Shown in pieces: positions 2,602 to 10,809 of a stretch of DNA of 11,060 nucleotides. The translations under genes and the position numbers were made by a program. The DNA is taken from NCBI GenBank assembly GCA_050293845.1, contig JBNKNM010000191.1:1-11060 (forward strand), in the 5' to 3' direction. The notes beneath the pieces are model-generated. The model made no database searches. It had not been told where the DNA came from and was given only the letters and a program-made list of their open reading frames with translations. Positions within the stretch are counted from its first letter, which is position 1. The number at the start of each line of letters is the position of its first letter. This DNA is from Pseudobacteriovorax sp. (GTDB lineage: Bacteria > Bdellovibrionota_B > Oligoflexia > Oligoflexales > Oligoflexaceae).

Positions 2602-2695
2602 AGGTGTGGCGGGAATTTTAAAAAAAATTGCAGAAAAACCTATTTTATAACATAGGGTTGGTAGCCTTTGTTTATCGCCCATTAGGAAAAATTAT

Positions 2696-5600
2696 ATGAG
2701 CAAGGATCTAAAACTTGGTAATCACTTTCTTTCCCAATGCAATACCAGTGCCTCAACGTATCAAGCATTTAAGCAGCTTCTTACACAACTCCAACAAGAA
2801 TCAAGCCGGCTGGAAGCCCATCAGACGTTAAAAGAGCTCCTGCTCATTCATGACTCTACCCTAGACCCCATAGGATTTAGTAAGCGCCACTTTTTTAGCT
2901 TCTATAATATCTCTTTGGCTCAAAATCAAAAACTAAAACTGCTCCAGTTCCCCAGTACTTTTACTCCTGAAGAATGGTCTTTCACATTTTATGAAGGTCT
3001 ATCTCGCTTTCCTATTAACGAATTCACCAACAAGGTCATAACTGAGCTAGGTTGCGGCAACGGATGGGTTTCCATCGCCCTAGCTCAACGTAGCCCCTTG
3101 AGTAAAATATACGGCTTAGATATCAACCCACGAGCTATAACTTGCGCCCAAATCAATGTTTTTCTTAACGGTATGGATGATAGCAGTTCTCCCATTAGAG
3201 ATGGTAGTGGACGCCCGCTATGGGATAAGGTTGAGTTTTATCATAGCGATTTGCTAGAAGCACTTAGGGAACGGAGCATTGGCCTAGACCTAGTTATCGG
3301 CTGTATCCCCCAAGTCCTAGCACCTGACCCTGACGCTCTTCTTGAAATTGTAACCGAATCTGCTTCCGATCAAGAACTGTACGATCTCTCTAATTATACA
3401 GAAGCACACGGATATATAGAAGATCAGTTTGGCCTCGGCCTGATAGCCAAAGCCACTGAAGAAGCTGTCCAGGTTCTTCATCCCAACGGCCGTATGATCT
3501 TTAACTTAGGGGGCCGGCCCGGAACAAAAGTCCTTGAGGGACTCTTTAAGAGGCGTGGTTTTACCGTAAAAAAAATCTGGAGTACACGGGTGGTACAAGC
3601 TGGTGATACTGAAATCGATGCGCTTGTCAAAATTGAAAAGAGCAGCCAGCATCGCTTCGAATTCTATATGGGTCCCAATGCCCAGGAATCTATTTCCGCT
3701 AAAACGGCGCAAGCTTTGCTTGCTGCGGGAGGAGAAATTTCTCACTCATTAAGTGTCTATGAAGCTTCACTCCCGGCCCATGAGCAAGTCGCTAATATAC
3801 TTCGCTTTTTAGCGAAACCGGAACACAAGAGCTTACATGAAGGCCTTGATTTGTCCTCAGAAGATCCTGAAGTCTATCAAGAGAGAGTAAATTTTTTGAG
3901 CCATCTGGCTTCATTTCTTGAAGACCGCAGCGAATTACCTTATGGAGAGACGCAGGGGCACTCAAGCCTGCGTCGGAGCATATCGCTATTCCTGCGAAGT
4001 TACTTCCGTTGCCCTGTCCAAAGTGAAAATATTTTTATCGCTCCTTCTCGGGCTGATGTGATTTCCAATATGATAAAGGTTTATGGGCCACAGGTTATTC
4101 TTTTTGATCAAAAATTACTATATGCGATCCAGGGCGATAGCGGAGTCGGATCATTACAAAATCTGTTTCCACAGATTCTAGAATCTCCCCAGCGTGTTGA
4201 TCTTCTCAAAGAACTCATACATCGCATCCGTCCTGACCTCGTTGTGACCTCCTTGAACAAATTCGAAAATGAATCTCCTGAGTTTTTGCGTCAACTATTC
4301 ATAGCGACGAAAGAATCATCTTCGCGACTGGTGCTAGATATGAGTGACTATTTTGACCTATCCAGTCAACCAACCACAAATGCAGCACTATCCCTTTTAT
4401 CGGAACAACATTTACCTTCTCATGTCACATTGATTTGCGGGCTTGTAAAAAATAAAGTATATGCCGACCTTCATTTGTGCTTTACCATCAGTGAAAATCA
4501 ACCCTTTTTCAATGACATGATTGCTGCGGCAGAATTAACATATAGTCGCGCTCCCCTGTTTACTCAATCATATTACCATAAAATATTTGATGATCTTCTC
4601 ACTTTCCATCTAGCAGATGCGCGGGGACTTGGGGTAGTAGAAAGGCAATTACAAAGTGATCAAAACCATAGTGAACTATCACCGGTTTCCCCCCATGTTG
4701 AGAAGGCATTTTTTCATCCAGCCATTGCAAGAGCAAAACTATCTCTAAATACCGCAACAATAAGATTAGATTATGGAGAAAACATACTTCCTATTCCTCG
4801 CATTCTACAAACCAGCATTTATGAGGCTTTTGTCCGTAGCGATATCTCTCTGACTGACTCGATGGTTAAGGATGAAATAATTCTTTATATGCAAAAAATT
4901 TTCAAAATCTTTCCTAAAGCTGATACTGAAGTATTTCAAGGATCTGGAGTAGCTCCGCTATTTGCCAATACCCTTGAAGGAATTTGTAAACAAGATAGTT
5001 CTCTGGTATTTCCCTCAGGAAGCTATGGAGAGTTTCACGCCACTGCATTATTTTTCGATGTTCCCATTATCAACTGCGAAACACAAGAGAGCAATTTCTT
5101 CAAATACTCCCCTAAGGCTCTACATGAATGCTTAACGGGCAAAAAAAATCCGTGGATTTTCTTGAACGCTCCCTGCGTTAATCCTACAGGAGCTTTATAT
5201 TCATCAGCTGAAATTGCTGAAATAATAGCTATAGCCAAGTCCCATGGTGCGGGTATTATTTTTGATGCCACATTTGCTGGTCTTGAATTTAATCCCAAAA
5301 ATGGGAATCTAGATCTTGATAACTTGTTCGATGACTCCTTCCCTTGGATATTCCTAATTGGGATTGCAAAACTGTTTGCTGCAGGAGGTTTACGGTTTGG
5401 AGCAGCCGTCACGAACTACCCTGACCTCAAGGAAGCTCTTTTTCGCAGCCCCTATCGCCCCCCTCACTTTACTGTTGCCTATGCCGCAAAACAGCTGTTT
5501 CAGAAATTACGATTGGAAAACCCCAACCTACAGGCATCTTTAGGTGAGCAAAGGCACACTCTTTGCAAAAGGGCTCAGCAACTTGAAGTGATGCTGAAAC

Positions 5601-5893
5601 AAAGCGGTTGGCATGTTATAGAACCCCAAGGCGGCTTATTTTTAATAGCCAAGCCAATATACTTTATCGGTAAAAATTGGCAATCTGCAAAAAGCAACGA
5701 AGCTTATACTATTGATAGTCAAAATATTGCCGAAATTTTATTCAAAGAAAAAAACTTACTCATTAACGGTAGCGATTGGACGGGGATCCCTGGATACTGC
5801 CGCTTCGTCCTCTCGGTTGAGCAGGAGGAGTTCGCAACCAGTCTTACACTGCTTCAAGAATTCTATCAGGAATTTAAAGAAAACGAGAACTAG
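2696..5893 (+). CDS. Full-length plant-type methionine S-methyltransferase (MMT): N-terminal MmtN-like SAM methyltransferase plus aminotransferase class I/II-like C-terminal region
   Basis: Collinear motifs that I recognise from plant MMT: PSTFTPEEWSFTFYEGL, ELGCGNGWVSIA (3044-), YGLDINPRA, VEFYHSDLL, GCIPQVL, EDQFGLGLIA, IFNLGGRPG, HRFEFYMG, ISHSLSVY, CGLVKNKVYADL, NPTG, PHFTVAYAAK, WTGIPGYCRF. Length 1065 aa is similar to plant MMT (~1070-1090 aa). AGGA RBS at 2684-2687. Confidence 0.93.
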   Translation: MSKDLKLGNHFLSQCNTSASTYQAFKQLLTQLQQESSRLEAHQTLKELLLIHDSTLDPIGFSKRHFFSFYNISLAQNQKLKLLQFPSTFTPEEWSFTFYEGLSRFPINEFTNKVITELGCGNGWVSIALAQRSPLSKIYGLDINPRAITCAQINVFLNGMDDSSSPIRDGSGRPLWDKVEFYHSDLLEALRERSIGLDLVIGCIPQVLAPDPDALLEIVTESASDQELYDLSNYTEAHGYIEDQFGLGLIAKATEEAVQVLHPNGRMIFNLGGRPGTKVLEGLFKRRGFTVKKIWSTRVVQAGDTEIDALVKIEKSSQHRFEFYMGPNAQESISAKTAQALLAAGGEISHSLSVYEASLPAHEQVANILRFLAKPEHKSLHEGLDLSSEDPEVYQERVNFLSHLASFLEDRSELPYGETQGHSSLRRSISLFLRSYFRCPVQSENIFIAPSRADVISNMIKVYGPQVILFDQKLLYAIQGDSGVGSLQNLFPQILESPQRVDLLKELIHRIRPDLVVTSLNKFENESPEFLRQLFIATKESSSRLVLDMSDYFDLSSQPTTNAALSLLSEQHLPSHVTLICGLVKNKVYADLHLCFTISENQPFFNDMIAAAELTYSRAPLFTQSYYHKIFDDLLTFHLADARGLGVVERQLQSDQNHSELSPVSPHVEKAFFHPAIARAKLSLNTATIRLDYGENILPIPRILQTSIYEAFVRSDISLTDSMVKDEIILYMQKIFKIFPKADTEVFQGSGVAPLFANTLEGICKQDSSLVFPSGSYGEFHATALFFDVPIINCETQESNFFKYSPKALHECLTGKKNPWIFLNAPCVNPTGALYSSAEIAEIIAIAKSHGAGIIFDATFAGLEFNPKNGNLDLDNLFDDSFPWIFLIGIAKLFAAGGLRFGAAVTNYPDLKEALFRSPYRPPHFTVAYAAKQLFQKLRLENPNLQASLGEQRHTLCKRAQQLEVMLKQSGWHVIEPQGGLFLIAKPIYFIGKNWQSAKSNEAYTIDSQNIAEILFKEKNLLINGSDWTGIPGYCRFVLSVEQEEFATSLTLLQEFYQEFKENEN

Positions 5894-5904
5894 CAATTCA
5901 TCGA

Positions 5905-5940
5905 AGAGGGGATACCATTGGTATCCCCTCTATCTTTTTT
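5905..5940. terminator. Intrinsic terminator between convergent MMT and htpG (possibly bidirectional)
   Basis: Perfect 12-bp stem AGAGGGGATACC(5905-5916)-ATT-GGTATCCCCTCT(5920-5931), T-run 5935-5940 on +; lies in the 45-bp gap between the two stop codons. Confidence 0.85.
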
Positions 5941-7861
5941 AAGAGTTTGTATGAGCCATAAGATTTGAAATTTGTTTAGAAAACTTTAATGGATCTTCAA
6001 TGGGAGATCCTTCTGTGAGCAAAGCCTGGTTGTAGAGAATTTCTGCCCATTCTTTCTGTGCATCCTCAGTAAGGCTTTGCATCTTTGTGAATACTGGATG
6101 ATCCGGATTGATTTCCATAATTCGTTTAGATTTAGGAACAGACTGTCCCATAGCTTCCATCATTCTTTCCATCCGCGCAGAAGGATCGTAAGCCCCTGAG
6201 ACTAAGCAGCAAGGGGAGTCAACTAACCGCGGTGAAATTTTAACTTCTTTTACGTTTGCTGCCACAGCACCTTTGATCGTTTCTAAGAGGGATTTATATT
6301 CTTTTTCTTTAGACTTAATATCCTCTTCGTTTTGCTTTTTTTCTTCCTCAGAATCCAGCTCCAAGCCTTCCTTAGTAATACTACGCAAGTGCTTTTCCTG
6401 GTATTGCGTCATAGACTGCATGACCCACTCATCAACAGGATCGATACAATATAAGACTTCATAGCCCTTTTGCTTTAATTTTTCTAAGTATGGGCTACAC
6501 TCCACTTGTTTAATGGATTCACCGGTAATGTAATAAATCTCTTTCTGAGCTTCCTTCATTCTTTCAACATATTCTCTTAACGTTGTTAAGGAATCTGTTT
6601 CATTGGAGTGAAAGAGTGCCAGTTCCTGAAGCTTATCTTTATTGCTAAAGTCATTAGCAATACCTTCTTTCAAGGTGGAGCCAAAGTTCTTCCAAATTCC
6701 CTCGTACTTTTCTCGATCCTTGCTCAGCATTGTTTTAAAGGTTTTTAGAAGCTTAGTTGACAAGGCTTTTTTAATACCTTGAATTTGTTTATCTTTCTGT
6801 AAAATTTCTCGAGAAACATTTAAAGAGAGATCGTTGGCTTCTATCACACCTTTAATGAATCTGAAATGCGGAGGAAGTAGTTCCTCACAGTGATCCATTA
6901 TGAATACCCTATTTACATAGAGAGATAGTCCCCACTTGGTGTCTCGATAATTGTAGTCCATAGGAACTTGGCCAGGAATAAACATCAAGGCCGTAAACTC
7001 TTGAGATCCCTCGGCTTTATAGAATATACGATCAACAGGTGGTACCCAATCATGGGTGACATGTTTATAAAATTCTGTATATTCGTCTTCAGTAACTTCT
7101 GATGGATCTCGCAACCATATGGCTTTACGGCTATTTAGAGTTTCGTCTTCGATAGTAGTTTTGGTTTTACCTTCTATAGGCTTACCATCCTTATCGAGTT
7201 CTGGTTCTTCCTTCGTTACTTCCATTTTTATAGGGAAGTCAATGAAGTCAGAATATTTTTTAACGGTGCTTTTAAGGGTCCATTCATCGGTAAAGTCCTG
7301 AGCTTCGTCATCATCTGGAAATGATTTCAAAAACAAAGTAATTTTCGTTCCCTGACCATCAGTACTTCCGGAAGCTCCTTCGATTGTATAAGAGCCATCC
7401 CCTGCGGATTCCCAGATAACCTTTTCCTGAGAGCCAGCTTTTTGGGTTTCAAGCCTCACTTTATCAGCAACCATAAAAGAAGAATAAAAACCCACACCGA
7501 ACTGTCCAATCAGATCAGGTGAATCCTTAAGTTCTTGAGATTTTTTTAGGAATTCCTTTGTACCAGAACGTGCAATGGTACCGATATTAGTTAAAACTTC
7601 TTCTTCGCTCATCCCTATTCCATTATCTATAATGGTAAGAGTTTTATTATTTTTATCAGGAACCAAGCGAATAAATTTGTCTTCGCCAGAAGTGCTGAGG
7701 TCAGCATTTGCAGCTTCTTCATATCTTAATTTATCTAATGCATCCGAGGCATTAGATATCAATTCCCTGAGAAAGATTTCTCGATGGGAATACAAAGAAT
7801 GTACCATAAGGTCCAGTATTTCTTTGACTTCAGCTTGGAATTGTTTGGTTTCTTTGGACAT
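5939..7861 (-). CDS. htpG: Molecular chaperone HtpG (bacterial Hsp90)
   Basis: FQAEVKEILDLMVHSLYSHREIFLRELISNASDALDKLR, DNGIGM, IGTIARSGT, IGQFGVGFYSSF, LNVSREILQ, EINPDHP. Start placed at ATG 7861 (MSKETKQF, 640 aa) because a GAGGG RBS precedes it; the ORF-track TTG at 7873 overlaps that RBS. Confidence 0.98.
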   Translation of the reverse strand: MSKETKQFQAEVKEILDLMVHSLYSHREIFLRELISNASDALDKLRYEEAANADLSTSGEDKFIRLVPDKNNKTLTIIDNGIGMSEEEVLTNIGTIARSGTKEFLKKSQELKDSPDLIGQFGVGFYSSFMVADKVRLETQKAGSQEKVIWESAGDGSYTIEGASGSTDGQGTKITLFLKSFPDDDEAQDFTDEWTLKSTVKKYSDFIDFPIKMEVTKEEPELDKDGKPIEGKTKTTIEDETLNSRKAIWLRDPSEVTEDEYTEFYKHVTHDWVPPVDRIFYKAEGSQEFTALMFIPGQVPMDYNYRDTKWGLSLYVNRVFIMDHCEELLPPHFRFIKGVIEANDLSLNVSREILQKDKQIQGIKKALSTKLLKTFKTMLSKDREKYEGIWKNFGSTLKEGIANDFSNKDKLQELALFHSNETDSLTTLREYVERMKEAQKEIYYITGESIKQVECSPYLEKLKQKGYEVLYCIDPVDEWVMQSMTQYQEKHLRSITKEGLELDSEEEKKQNEEDIKSKEKEYKSLLETIKGAVAANVKEVKISPRLVDSPCCLVSGAYDPSARMERMMEAMGQSVPKSKRIMEINPDHPVFTKMQSLTEDAQKEWAEILYNQALLTEGSPIEDPLKFSKQISNLMAHTNS

Positions 7862-7899
7862 TTTTACCCTCAAAAATGGAAAAGTTTCTCAGTATCTGA

Positions 7900-8530: not shown

Positions 8531-9622
8531 TTGGGCACAAAAGTCATCGTTAATTCCTTTCAGCAATTAACAATATCTTGTCCCTTATGTGAGATTGAGG
8601 ATACTCATCATAGGATCAAACCTACTTTATATCGAGAAACCAGTCGCGATATCGATCTGCGCCCAAAGTCTGTAGACTGGAACCCCAAAGCCTCTCCCAA
8701 AGTAGATCCCAAAGTATATTTTTTTTGGAAGTGTAATCATTGTCATTTTTGCTCCGACCAAAAGAGCTATATTACTCCCTTTGCAGAAGGTATTATGAGC
8801 GCCGTTCGCTTTAGAAAGCTCTTAAAACCAGCTTTGGAGCAAGATGCGGCCTATATGGAACTGAAAGAACTACTCGCTCCCCAGGACGAAGACAAAACCC
8901 CGCAATTCGTTAAAGCGATGCGCCGCTGTTTTTTGGCCATCTATCAGCATGAGGCTGTTGAGGAAATTGCCATTAAGGAGAGCCTAAAAATTGGCTCTTA
9001 TTACCTCCGGCTCGCATGGATGATACGCGATATCAAAACCTCAAAAACAAAGGCTAATTTATACAAATTGCCCACCCGGGAGTTACTACGTCAAACTAAA
9101 AGGATATGGCCTTCCCTCCCCATAACAGAACTTTCTATTGTCCAACGCGCCATAGAATATTATACCCGTTCGCTCAAACAATCCCATGCCATAAAAACTA
9201 CACTCTCGGAAATCCAAATCAACTTGGTGATTGCTCGTATGTACTTACAAATAGGTGAACTGAAGTCGGCTCACCATCTGTTGCTAGAAAATCGAACCCG
9301 TGCAAAAAATTATGAACTAATCGTAAAACAAAAAGAAAAGTCAGCTAAACAAGGTGATAGTGAGATAGATCAGATGTCAATGGATGCAAGCAAAGCGGTA
9401 AATTCAGTAAGAAACGTGTACCTTATCTACGAACATCTCGATCAAATAAGGTTTAAAAAGGAAGTGGACCAAGCTTTGAAGTTTTTTATACAAGAGGAAC
9501 TTGGCAAAAAGGAAATCACTGAACAGCGGGACTCCCTTAAGAAAAAAGGTTATGAAGAAGAGATCATCGATAAGATTGCCCCTATTCAGAAGAAAAAAGG
9601 GATCTTTGAGTTTTTAAAATAA
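8531..9622 (+). CDS. DUF2225-like protein (N-terminal Zn ribbon plus TPR-like helical domain)
   Basis: CPLC ... RDIDLRP ... VDPKVYFFWKCNHCHF zinc-ribbon pair and YYLRLAWMIR motif typical of DUF2225; TTG start with GAGGA RBS at 8519-8523 (7-nt spacing). Confidence 0.8.
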   Translation: MGTKVIVNSFQQLTISCPLCEIEDTHHRIKPTLYRETSRDIDLRPKSVDWNPKASPKVDPKVYFFWKCNHCHFCSDQKSYITPFAEGIMSAVRFRKLLKPALEQDAAYMELKELLAPQDEDKTPQFVKAMRRCFLAIYQHEAVEEIAIKESLKIGSYYLRLAWMIRDIKTSKTKANLYKLPTRELLRQTKRIWPSLPITELSIVQRAIEYYTRSLKQSHAIKTTLSEIQINLVIARMYLQIGELKSAHHLLLENRTRAKNYELIVKQKEKSAKQGDSEIDQMSMDASKAVNSVRNVYLIYEHLDQIRFKKEVDQALKFFIQEELGKKEITEQRDSLKKKGYEEEIIDKIAPIQKKKGIFEFLK

Positions 9623-10326: not shown

Positions 10327-10809
10327 TCAAAAGGTAAAAGAAAAGAAACTAATATGAAGATTAAAAAATTCTTCTGACATTAAATCGCCCATATTCTCCA
10401 TAAAAAACACCTGGCAATCCTCAGACCGCAAGTCTGCAGATTCAGAATATACAACACGGCTTTTAGGGCTCAAAGTTAACTCGCTTGATATGTTTGCTGA
10501 AGAAAAATCTCCTCCCGGCCATACCATCAGACAGCGCCCTTTTTCAGTCTCTCCTAATGCGCTGTCGCCTCCATTTATCTGTAACAAATCGATCTGCGAA
10601 CGTAGCATGATAGCAGCCAATGCATCCCCACCGTCTCCTTCTTTCAAATCATCCACTTGTGCCACAACTGATGAAAAGGCTAACTGAGTCCCTGCAGACC
10701 CCGCAGCTACTTCTTTCTTTTGAATCTGGGGAGCGCTTTCAAAAATATTGCTTCCACAACTTAGAATCAAGCTAGATAGTACTGCTATGCAAATATATAA
10801 ATGCTTCAT
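10327..10809 (-). CDS. Hypothetical lipoprotein (160 aa)
   Basis: Signal peptide MKHLYICIAVLSSLILS-C18 with lipobox-like ILSC followed by GS; GAGGA RBS upstream (10818-10822, minus strand); two further Cys in the mature part; no family recognised. Confidence 0.8.
   Translation of the reverse strand: MKHLYICIAVLSSLILSCGSNIFESAPQIQKKEVAAGSAGTQLAFSSVVAQVDDLKEGDGGDALAAIMLRSQIDLLQINGGDSALGETEKGRCLMVWPGGDFSSANISSELTLSPKSRVVYSESADLRSEDCQVFFMENMGDLMSEEFFNLHISFFSFTF

Follow-up and report, generated by a model that had tools for sequence, protein, structure and literature searches.

How does a protein that matches a plant enzyme over its whole length come to be encoded in a bacterial genome, and what could its long C-terminal part do there? 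In plants, methionine S-methyltransferase (MMT; EC 2.1.1.12) is encoded by genes with introns and has roles in the S-methylmethionine (SMM) cycle and in phloem sulfur transport. Here, we address this question for the window, the whole stretch of DNA under analysis, which is the entire contig JBNKNM010000191.1 (11,060 bases) of the 6.68-Mb draft genome of Pseudobacteriovorax sp. (GCA_050293845.1; 741 contigs, 96.4% completeness, 1.2% contamination). One long reading frame of this contig had been called a full-length plant-type MMT in a preliminary description. That observation is confirmed, and the interpretation attached to it is partly supported. It is very likely that the gene is a native bacterial long-form (Group III) MMT, which would convert methionine and S-adenosylmethionine (SAM) into SMM and S-adenosylhomocysteine (SAH), and whose C-terminal domain probably binds pyridoxal 5'-phosphate (PLP). 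The gene and its predicted parts are as follows.

2696..5893, + strand: open reading frame (ORF) of the long-form (Group III, plant-type) MMT, stop codon included, 1065 amino acids (aa), ATG start (ORF list and translation)
2696..3760, + strand: residues 1-355, N-terminal helical cap and MmtN-like class I SAM methyltransferase domain (phmmer alignment to PDB entry 7vvv)
3761..4672, + strand: residues 356-659, middle region, predicted degenerate internal duplicate of the aminotransferase large domain, or pseudo-aminotransferase (hhalign)
4673..5890, + strand: residues 660-1065, predicted class I aminotransferase domain (fold type I), complete and with its PLP site intact (Pfam and structure match)
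5369..5371, + strand: codon for lysine K892, predicted to form the Schiff base with PLP, within GIAKLFAAGGLRFG, a motif aligned with SK...R of solved aminotransferases

The frame at 2696..5893 is uninterrupted and has no competing long frame in the ORF list, and its product was the only match found within its own genome, so that the long-form MMT is single-copy. In a phmmer comparison, residues 10-1056 were aligned with residues 14-1083 of the methionine S-methyltransferase of Selaginella moellendorffii (XP_024516277.1; E 8.8e-228, 40% identity). The two proteins are therefore collinear from end to end, including the aminotransferase-like C-terminal region, and the similarity is not limited to a generic methyltransferase fold. 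Identity to plant MMTs in the multiple alignment was 36-38% overall; by region (73-row alignment), the methyltransferase core (residues 77-355) had 55-60%, the middle region 31-35% and the C-terminal domain 28-30%. The query was also placed beside Streptophyta clusters labelled 'methionine S-methyltransferase' in the ESM Atlas (0.99-1.00). When Selaginella MMT was used as the seed, named MMTs from liverworts, ferns, conifers and angiosperms were retrieved, and two unlabelled matches of the query (40% and 39% identity) proved to be 62% and 61% identical to the Selaginella protein and are thus plant sequences. The closest named homologue of the query was the MMT of Pseudobacteriovorax antillogorgiicola (51% identity, 99% query coverage), and the genome encoding exactly this protein shares its GTDB family with the window genome.

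Judged by these alignments, the product of 2696-5893 is a genuine full-length plant-type MMT of bacterial Group III. A plant-like long MMT has already been described from Oligoflexia, in the same bacterial family as the window genome. In Peng et al. (2022; PMC9135737), plant-like two-domain MMT is reported from some Deltaproteobacteria and Oligoflexia (citing Williams et al., 2019), and plant and bacterial MMTs together form Group III. The initial guess that the gene was probably not unprecedented was therefore right.

Two parts of the protein were recognized by Pfam, MTS (1.5e-07, residues 111-162, with the class I SAM-methyltransferase signature reaching residue 165) and Aminotran_1_2 (1.3e-17, residues 737-984). 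The best sequence match in the PDB was MmtN of Roseovarius indicus (7vvv, E 9e-13), which covers residues 89-355 only. The SAM-site positions, namely the GxGxG glycines (G119, G121 and G123), D142 at the position of MmtN Asp69 and C203 at the position of MmtN Cys121, were invariant across 58 aligned homologues. According to PMC9135737, Asp69 and Cys121 are SAM-site residues of MmtN, whereas Glu127, Arg132 and Glu250 contact methionine; 'most' of the binding residues are stated there to be conserved in MMT.

An AlphaFold2 model built from the 58-sequence alignment had a mean predicted local distance difference test (pLDDT) score of 90.7 and a predicted template modelling (pTM) score of 0.89, with values below 50 only at residues 1-5 and 210-216. 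The middle region (356-659), for which there was no Pfam match, is folded with high confidence in this model, and its sub-alignment matched that of the C-terminal domain in hhalign (probability 97.3%, E 1.8e-11, 184 columns). The C-terminal domain (model residues 662-1061) was superimposed by VIA-align on the prephenate aminotransferase 6f77_A with a Z score of 42.2 and a root-mean-square deviation of 2.5 A over 382 residues, and its profile had 4my5 as the top match in the PDB (7e-27). The predicted architecture is a methyltransferase followed by a degenerate and then by an intact aminotransferase module. We also considered an ACC-synthase-like C-terminal domain, as 1-aminocyclopropane-1-carboxylate (ACC) synthase handles sulfonium amino acids. 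This candidate was ranked below ordinary aminotransferases both by profile (7.8e-17 vs 7e-27) and by structure (Z 37-38, ACC synthase 7, vs 42); the GEN motif of the query aligns with the ordinary GEP motif, and no specific support for the candidate was found.

A notable feature of the protein lies in its PLP site. Five residues, N829 (in NPTG), D857, K892, R900 (also within GIAKLFAAGGLRFG) and R1036, align with their counterparts in solved aminotransferases. From the literature on aspartate aminotransferase we take their roles to be those of the O3' asparagine, the pyridine aspartate, the Schiff-base lysine, the phosphate arginine and the alpha-carboxylate arginine, respectively. All five were invariant (58/58) in an alignment of sequences from bacteria, rotifers and the distant clade, in which identity to the query was only 27-51%. 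By contrast, both the lysine and the phosphate arginine were replaced in each of 11 streptophytes (Mesostigma, Closterium, two liverworts, two lycophytes, a fern, a conifer, Amborella, rice and poplar). Q, P, T, S, F or L took the place of the lysine, and Q, E, D or K that of the arginine. The same pattern emerged when the full set of 316 retrieved sequences with a length of 900 aa or more was aligned by hmmalign and the Schiff-base lysine was tallied.

Non-plant, non-rotifer, non-distant sequences (many are unnamed metagenome proteins, not proven bacterial): lysine retained in 168/171
Distant clade: lysine retained in 13/13
Rotifer: lysine retained in 1/2
Streptophyte-alga entries: lysine retained in 0/7
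Plant: lysine retained in 0/123

The phosphate arginine was retained in 170/171 of the non-plant sequences vs 8/123 of the plant sequences, and the whole C-terminal domain was less similar to the query in streptophytes (28-30% identity) than in other bacteria (36-45%). Such a contrast is what would be expected if the PLP residues are functionally required in bacteria. It also means that the protein does not follow plant MMT motif by motif over its whole length, as had been proposed at first: the PLP motifs of its C-terminal domain are intact, and they are destroyed in all plants examined. Because the site is intact in bacteria and lost in plants, the bacterial enzyme may be bifunctional and the plant aminotransferase domain may be a relic. 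No paper discussing the PLP lysine or a second activity of MMT was found in literature searches whose coverage did not include the original plant MMT paper; the MMT 'aminotransferase domain' appears in PMC10585787 only as a restatement of the domain layout. Thus, no report of the contrast between bacteria and plants was found in the literature searched, although the long-form MMT itself is already known.

To place the gene among its relatives, phylogenetic trees were rooted on the distant clade and built with FastTree (73 rows) and with IQ-TREE in quick mode under LG+G4 (45 rows, 28 long or redundant rows having been dropped beforehand); MmtN Groups I and II were left out of both trees. The query fell within a 6-row clade together with the P. 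antillogorgiicola protein (Shimodaira-Hasegawa (SH)-like support 100 in FastTree, SH-aLRT 99 in IQ-TREE), and it was not near streptophytes in either tree. The ingroup, which includes both the query and the streptophytes, was split from the distant clade, whose members in the trees were 27-31% identical to the query, with support 100. Streptophytes were monophyletic (100 and 99) and were found inside the bacterial ingroup; the branch by which one bacterial representative is separated from the rest of the ingroup had support 93 in FastTree and 97 in IQ-TREE. In the approximately unbiased (AU) test, a tree with all ingroup bacteria and the rotifer as one clade was not rejected (p = 0.185), and the evidence for nesting of plants within bacteria is therefore confined to SH-type supports. 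These results suggest a transfer from bacterium to plant, although topology alone does not settle the direction. The plant form is, as far as these alignments go, the derived state, because the PLP site is intact in bacteria and in the outgroup and lost in all streptophytes. A special bearing of this gene on the origin of plant MMT, which had been anticipated, was not found: the protein belongs to a Pseudobacteriovorax clade that does not lie next to plants, and the relevance of the gene to that origin is no greater than that of hundreds of other bacterial homologues.

Several relatives in these trees deserve mention in their own right. MMT homologues of the streptophyte algae Closterium and Mesostigma are basal to land-plant MMT and have already lost the PLP lysine; according to a 2018 survey (PMC6284425), MMT was not found in algae. 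Two long-form MMTs of bdelloid rotifers (Rotaria spp.), encoded on a 370-kb and a 78-kb scaffold, are nested inside a Bacteroidota-type clade (support 99), and the PLP lysine is retained in one copy and is Glu in the other. For the rotifer Adineta, only a short Group II MmtN is reported in PMC9135737. Members of the distant clade (27-33% identity to the query) have the same long architecture of methyltransferase and aminotransferase-like parts with an intact PLP site, and are labelled 'aminotransferase/methylase' by JGI.

With respect to function, it can be predicted with high confidence that the N-terminal MmtN-like domain makes SMM: it would bind SAM and methylate the sulfur of L-methionine, releasing SMM and SAH. 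This assignment is based on homology both to the biochemically proven plant MMT and to MmtN, with 55-60% identity in the core. With moderate confidence, the C-terminal domain is predicted to bind PLP and to act on an alpha-amino acid, PLP binding being probable since all canonical PLP-site residues are present except the equivalent of Tyr225. Transamination is the default guess for its reaction, because the nearest relatives of the domain are ordinary aspartate, aromatic and prephenate aminotransferases. The most economical substrate would be methionine or SMM itself, and candidate reactions are the conversion of SMM into 4-dimethylsulfonio-2-oxobutyrate or the formation of methionine from its 2-oxo acid.

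The SMM formed could feed a homocysteine S-methyltransferase domain and thereby complete an SMM cycle; alternatively, it might be a precursor of dimethylsulfoniopropionate (DMSP), as in the related P. antillogorgiicola. The genome encodes a YitJ-like bifunctional homocysteine S-methyltransferase/methylenetetrahydrofolate reductase (MTHFR; NF006396, 692.5 bits vs a cut-off of 453) as well as metH, and an SMM cycle in this organism is possible.

Several observations weigh against the assignment as an SMM-forming enzyme with a PLP-binding partner domain. In a pairwise HMMER alignment, the methionine-binding residues Glu127 and Arg132 of MmtN align to A209 and A214, with Glu250 placed within an insertion; this loop is of low confidence in the model, where pLDDT is below 50 at residues 210-216. 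No stand-alone mmuM was found in the genome, where the PF02574 matches are the YitJ-like protein and MetH only. No genes of methionine, SMM or DMSP pathways adjoined MMT at any of the 14 loci compared. Among four Group III strains tested, one, P. antillogorgiicola, made DMSP (PMC9135737). Finally, the position equivalent to Tyr225 of aspartate aminotransferase (AspAT) is Phe (F860; D-A-T-F vs D-E-V-Y), with Phe in 168/171 of the non-plant sequences. As to the first of these points, the motif GCIPQVL-x-P, which carries the same substitutions at the Glu127 and Arg132 positions, is common to plants and bacteria, and the mismatch thus does not set the query apart from proven MMTs.

What does recur beside MMT at the 14 loci is an unlabelled protein of 340-440 aa together with genes for ribosomal proteins L11, L1 and L10, and this arrangement is confined to one family. 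In that second MMT-bearing family, MMT and the adjoining gene for the 340-440-aa protein, which has no Pfam match, are divergently oriented in 10/10 loci, and rplK-rplA-rplJ lie beyond it in 6/10 loci.

A more far-reaching proposal is that bacterial long MMTs are bifunctional, with the PLP domain and its degenerate duplicate paired within one molecule, and that streptophytes inherited the fusion from a bacterium and later lost the PLP site by decay, so that the polarity of the transfer would be from bacterium to plant. Under this proposal, conversion of SMM into 4-dimethylsulfonio-2-oxobutyrate would be the first committed step towards DMSP, by transamination and decarboxylation, or else 2-oxo-4-methylthiobutyrate would be converted into methionine. 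The complete scenario is put forward tentatively, and we regard it as a serious possibility that still falls short of being probable.

Rather less likely is that bacteria, too, have a non-catalytic C-terminal PLP domain, with a structural or regulatory role, as is presumably the case in plants, in what would then be a monofunctional MMT. The nearly universal Phe at the Tyr225-equivalent position fits such a role, plants manage with a dead domain, and no second activity of MMT is mentioned in the literature examined (PMC9135737 and PMC10585787). However, the lysine, the phosphate arginine, the aspartate, the asparagine and the alpha-carboxylate arginine have remained invariant down to 27-51% identity, the distant clade included, whereas streptophytes have lost the lysine (0/123 plants and 0/7 algal entries) and, for the most part, the arginine, along with the similarity of the C-terminal domain (28-30% vs 36-45% in bacteria).

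It is quite improbable that the methyltransferase domain has a substrate other than methionine and that the protein serves mainly as a PLP enzyme in another pathway, for instance in a biosynthetic step towards a small molecule, with SMM formation incidental or absent. Such a role would agree with the failure of the alignment to recover the methionine-binding residues of MmtN, with the strict conservation of the PLP site, which implies an important second chemistry, with the 3/4 tested Group III strains without DMSP (PMC9135737), and with the existence of further bacterial methyltransferase-aminotransferase fusions in the ESM Atlas. Against it stand the 55-60% identity of the methyltransferase core to plant MMTs with established methionine S-methylation and the identical substitutions of plants and bacteria within GCIPQVL-x-P.

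The last alternative concerns the source of the DNA. The other features of the contig are listed below.

1-77: tRNA-Gly, neighbour of MMT
222-1757: CHASE5 histidine kinase, neighbour of MMT
1885-2562, + strand: SAM methyltransferase of 225 aa (Methyltransf_31, 6.6e-11; weak TehB and TPMT-like matches)
2684..2687, + strand: Shine-Dalgarno-like AGGA, 8 nt upstream of the ATG at 2696 (direct sequence reading)
5905 to about 5931-5941, no strand assigned: intrinsic-terminator-like hairpin and T-run, 12-bp stem with 7 GC pairs and a 3-nt loop (scan and sequence)
5939-7873, - strand: htpG, convergent with MMT
8531-9622, + strand: DUF2225 protein (4.3e-11)
10327-10809, - strand: ORF of 160 aa without Pfam or NCBIfam match, with a 36%-identical counterpart at the same-genus locus

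The contig has a GC content of 40.8% vs 41.2% for the genome, and the order of kinase, small methyltransferase, MMT and htpG is found again in the single further genome assigned to this GTDB genus. Since GC matches the genome, the gene order recurs and the neighbours are bacterial, the MMT gene is bacterial and native to this genome, and is not plant contamination, as had been argued from its ribosome-binding site (RBS), terminator and neighbours, all of which we found again. Mis-binned plant or algal DNA, or a recent transfer from plant to bacterium, is effectively refuted despite the high whole-length similarity to plant MMT, because the ORF is intron-free with an RBS and a terminator of bacterial type, tRNA-Gly, histidine kinase and htpG genes flank it in synteny with the same-genus genome, its GC equals that of the genome, its nearest relatives are bacterial, and an intact PLP site that is shared with a distant outgroup and absent from all streptophytes would need several reversions.

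The hairpin and T-run lie just 3' of the MMT stop codon and separate MMT from the convergent htpG. Overall, the terminator scan gave 4 sites vs 4.4 expected and was therefore not enriched, so that only position and stem strength argue for a function of this hairpin. The gene of the 225-aa SAM methyltransferase ends 133 nt upstream of MMT. It adjoins MMT in the window and in the same-genus genome, but is missing from this position at the other 12 MMT loci. Sequence reading also showed a short hairpin and T-run at about 2577-2601, which the scan did not flag and which may terminate the small methyltransferase gene separately.

Divergence between the two same-genus loci is uneven. Identity is 49% for MMT, 42% for the kinase and 36% for the 160-aa ORF, whereas htpG (82%) and the small methyltransferase (77%) are far better conserved. 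For MMT, rapid divergence seems a better explanation than replacement, because the window protein remains nearest to the same-genus MMT among the fetched proteins.

The assumption that the long form is rare in bacteria did not hold. In a search against 1.84 billion cluster representatives, the query had 843 matches at E<=1e-3, of which 391 reached E<=1e-10 and 158 reached E<=1e-30. Within the phylum, 32/131 sampled genomes contained the long form (E<=1e-50), distributed as 4/22 in the family of the window genome, 28/33 in a second family (three of these matches being partial) and 0/76 in 17 other families. Named homologues were also present in Silvanigrella, Fluviispira, Bacteroidota, Acidobacteriota, cyanobacteria (Moorea and Pleurocapsa), Aliikangiella and bdelloid rotifers. 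Long-form MMT is thus not rare in bacteria.

With the gene described here, a further Oligoflexia genome joins a family already reported to have plant-like MMT, and its organism is a candidate producer of SMM and possibly of DMSP. The main interest lies in the family-wide contrast at the PLP site, which is directly testable and provides a character that polarises the relationship between bacteria and plants independently of tree topology.

The protein can be compared with several known systems. With MmtN (Group I, about 300 aa; 7vvv) it has in common the methyltransferase fold and the Asp69 and Cys121 SAM-site residues, and the same reaction is expected for both. However, MmtN has no aminotransferase modules and corresponds to residues 89-355 of the present protein only, and its genes lie in DMSP or nonribosomal peptide synthetase (NRPS) clusters (PMC9135737), unlike the MMT gene of the window. 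The aspartate, aromatic and prephenate aminotransferases of class I (subgroup I-gamma type) share the fold of the C-terminal 400 residues (Z 40-42) and the Lys, Asp, Asn and two Arg of the PLP and carboxylate site. They are only 14-20% identical to this domain, and they have the PLP-O3' tyrosine and GEP where the window protein has Phe and GEN. Unlike them, the C-terminal domain follows a methyltransferase and its own degenerate copy in one fused polypeptide.

Plant MMT has the GxGxG motif, D142, C203 and the RFEF motif in common with the window protein, from which it differs in that the PLP lysine is replaced, the phosphate arginine is mostly replaced as well and the RLDYGEN motif has decayed. 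The closest counterpart is the Group III MMT of P. antillogorgiicola, which has the same three-module architecture (1070 aa vs 1065 aa here) and forms one well-supported clade with the window protein within the same GTDB family. Neither of these two genes is linked to DMSP or methionine-cycling genes. The two organisms differ in genus and no flanking gene is common to both MMT loci, and DMSP production is a reported feature of the P. antillogorgiicola strain.

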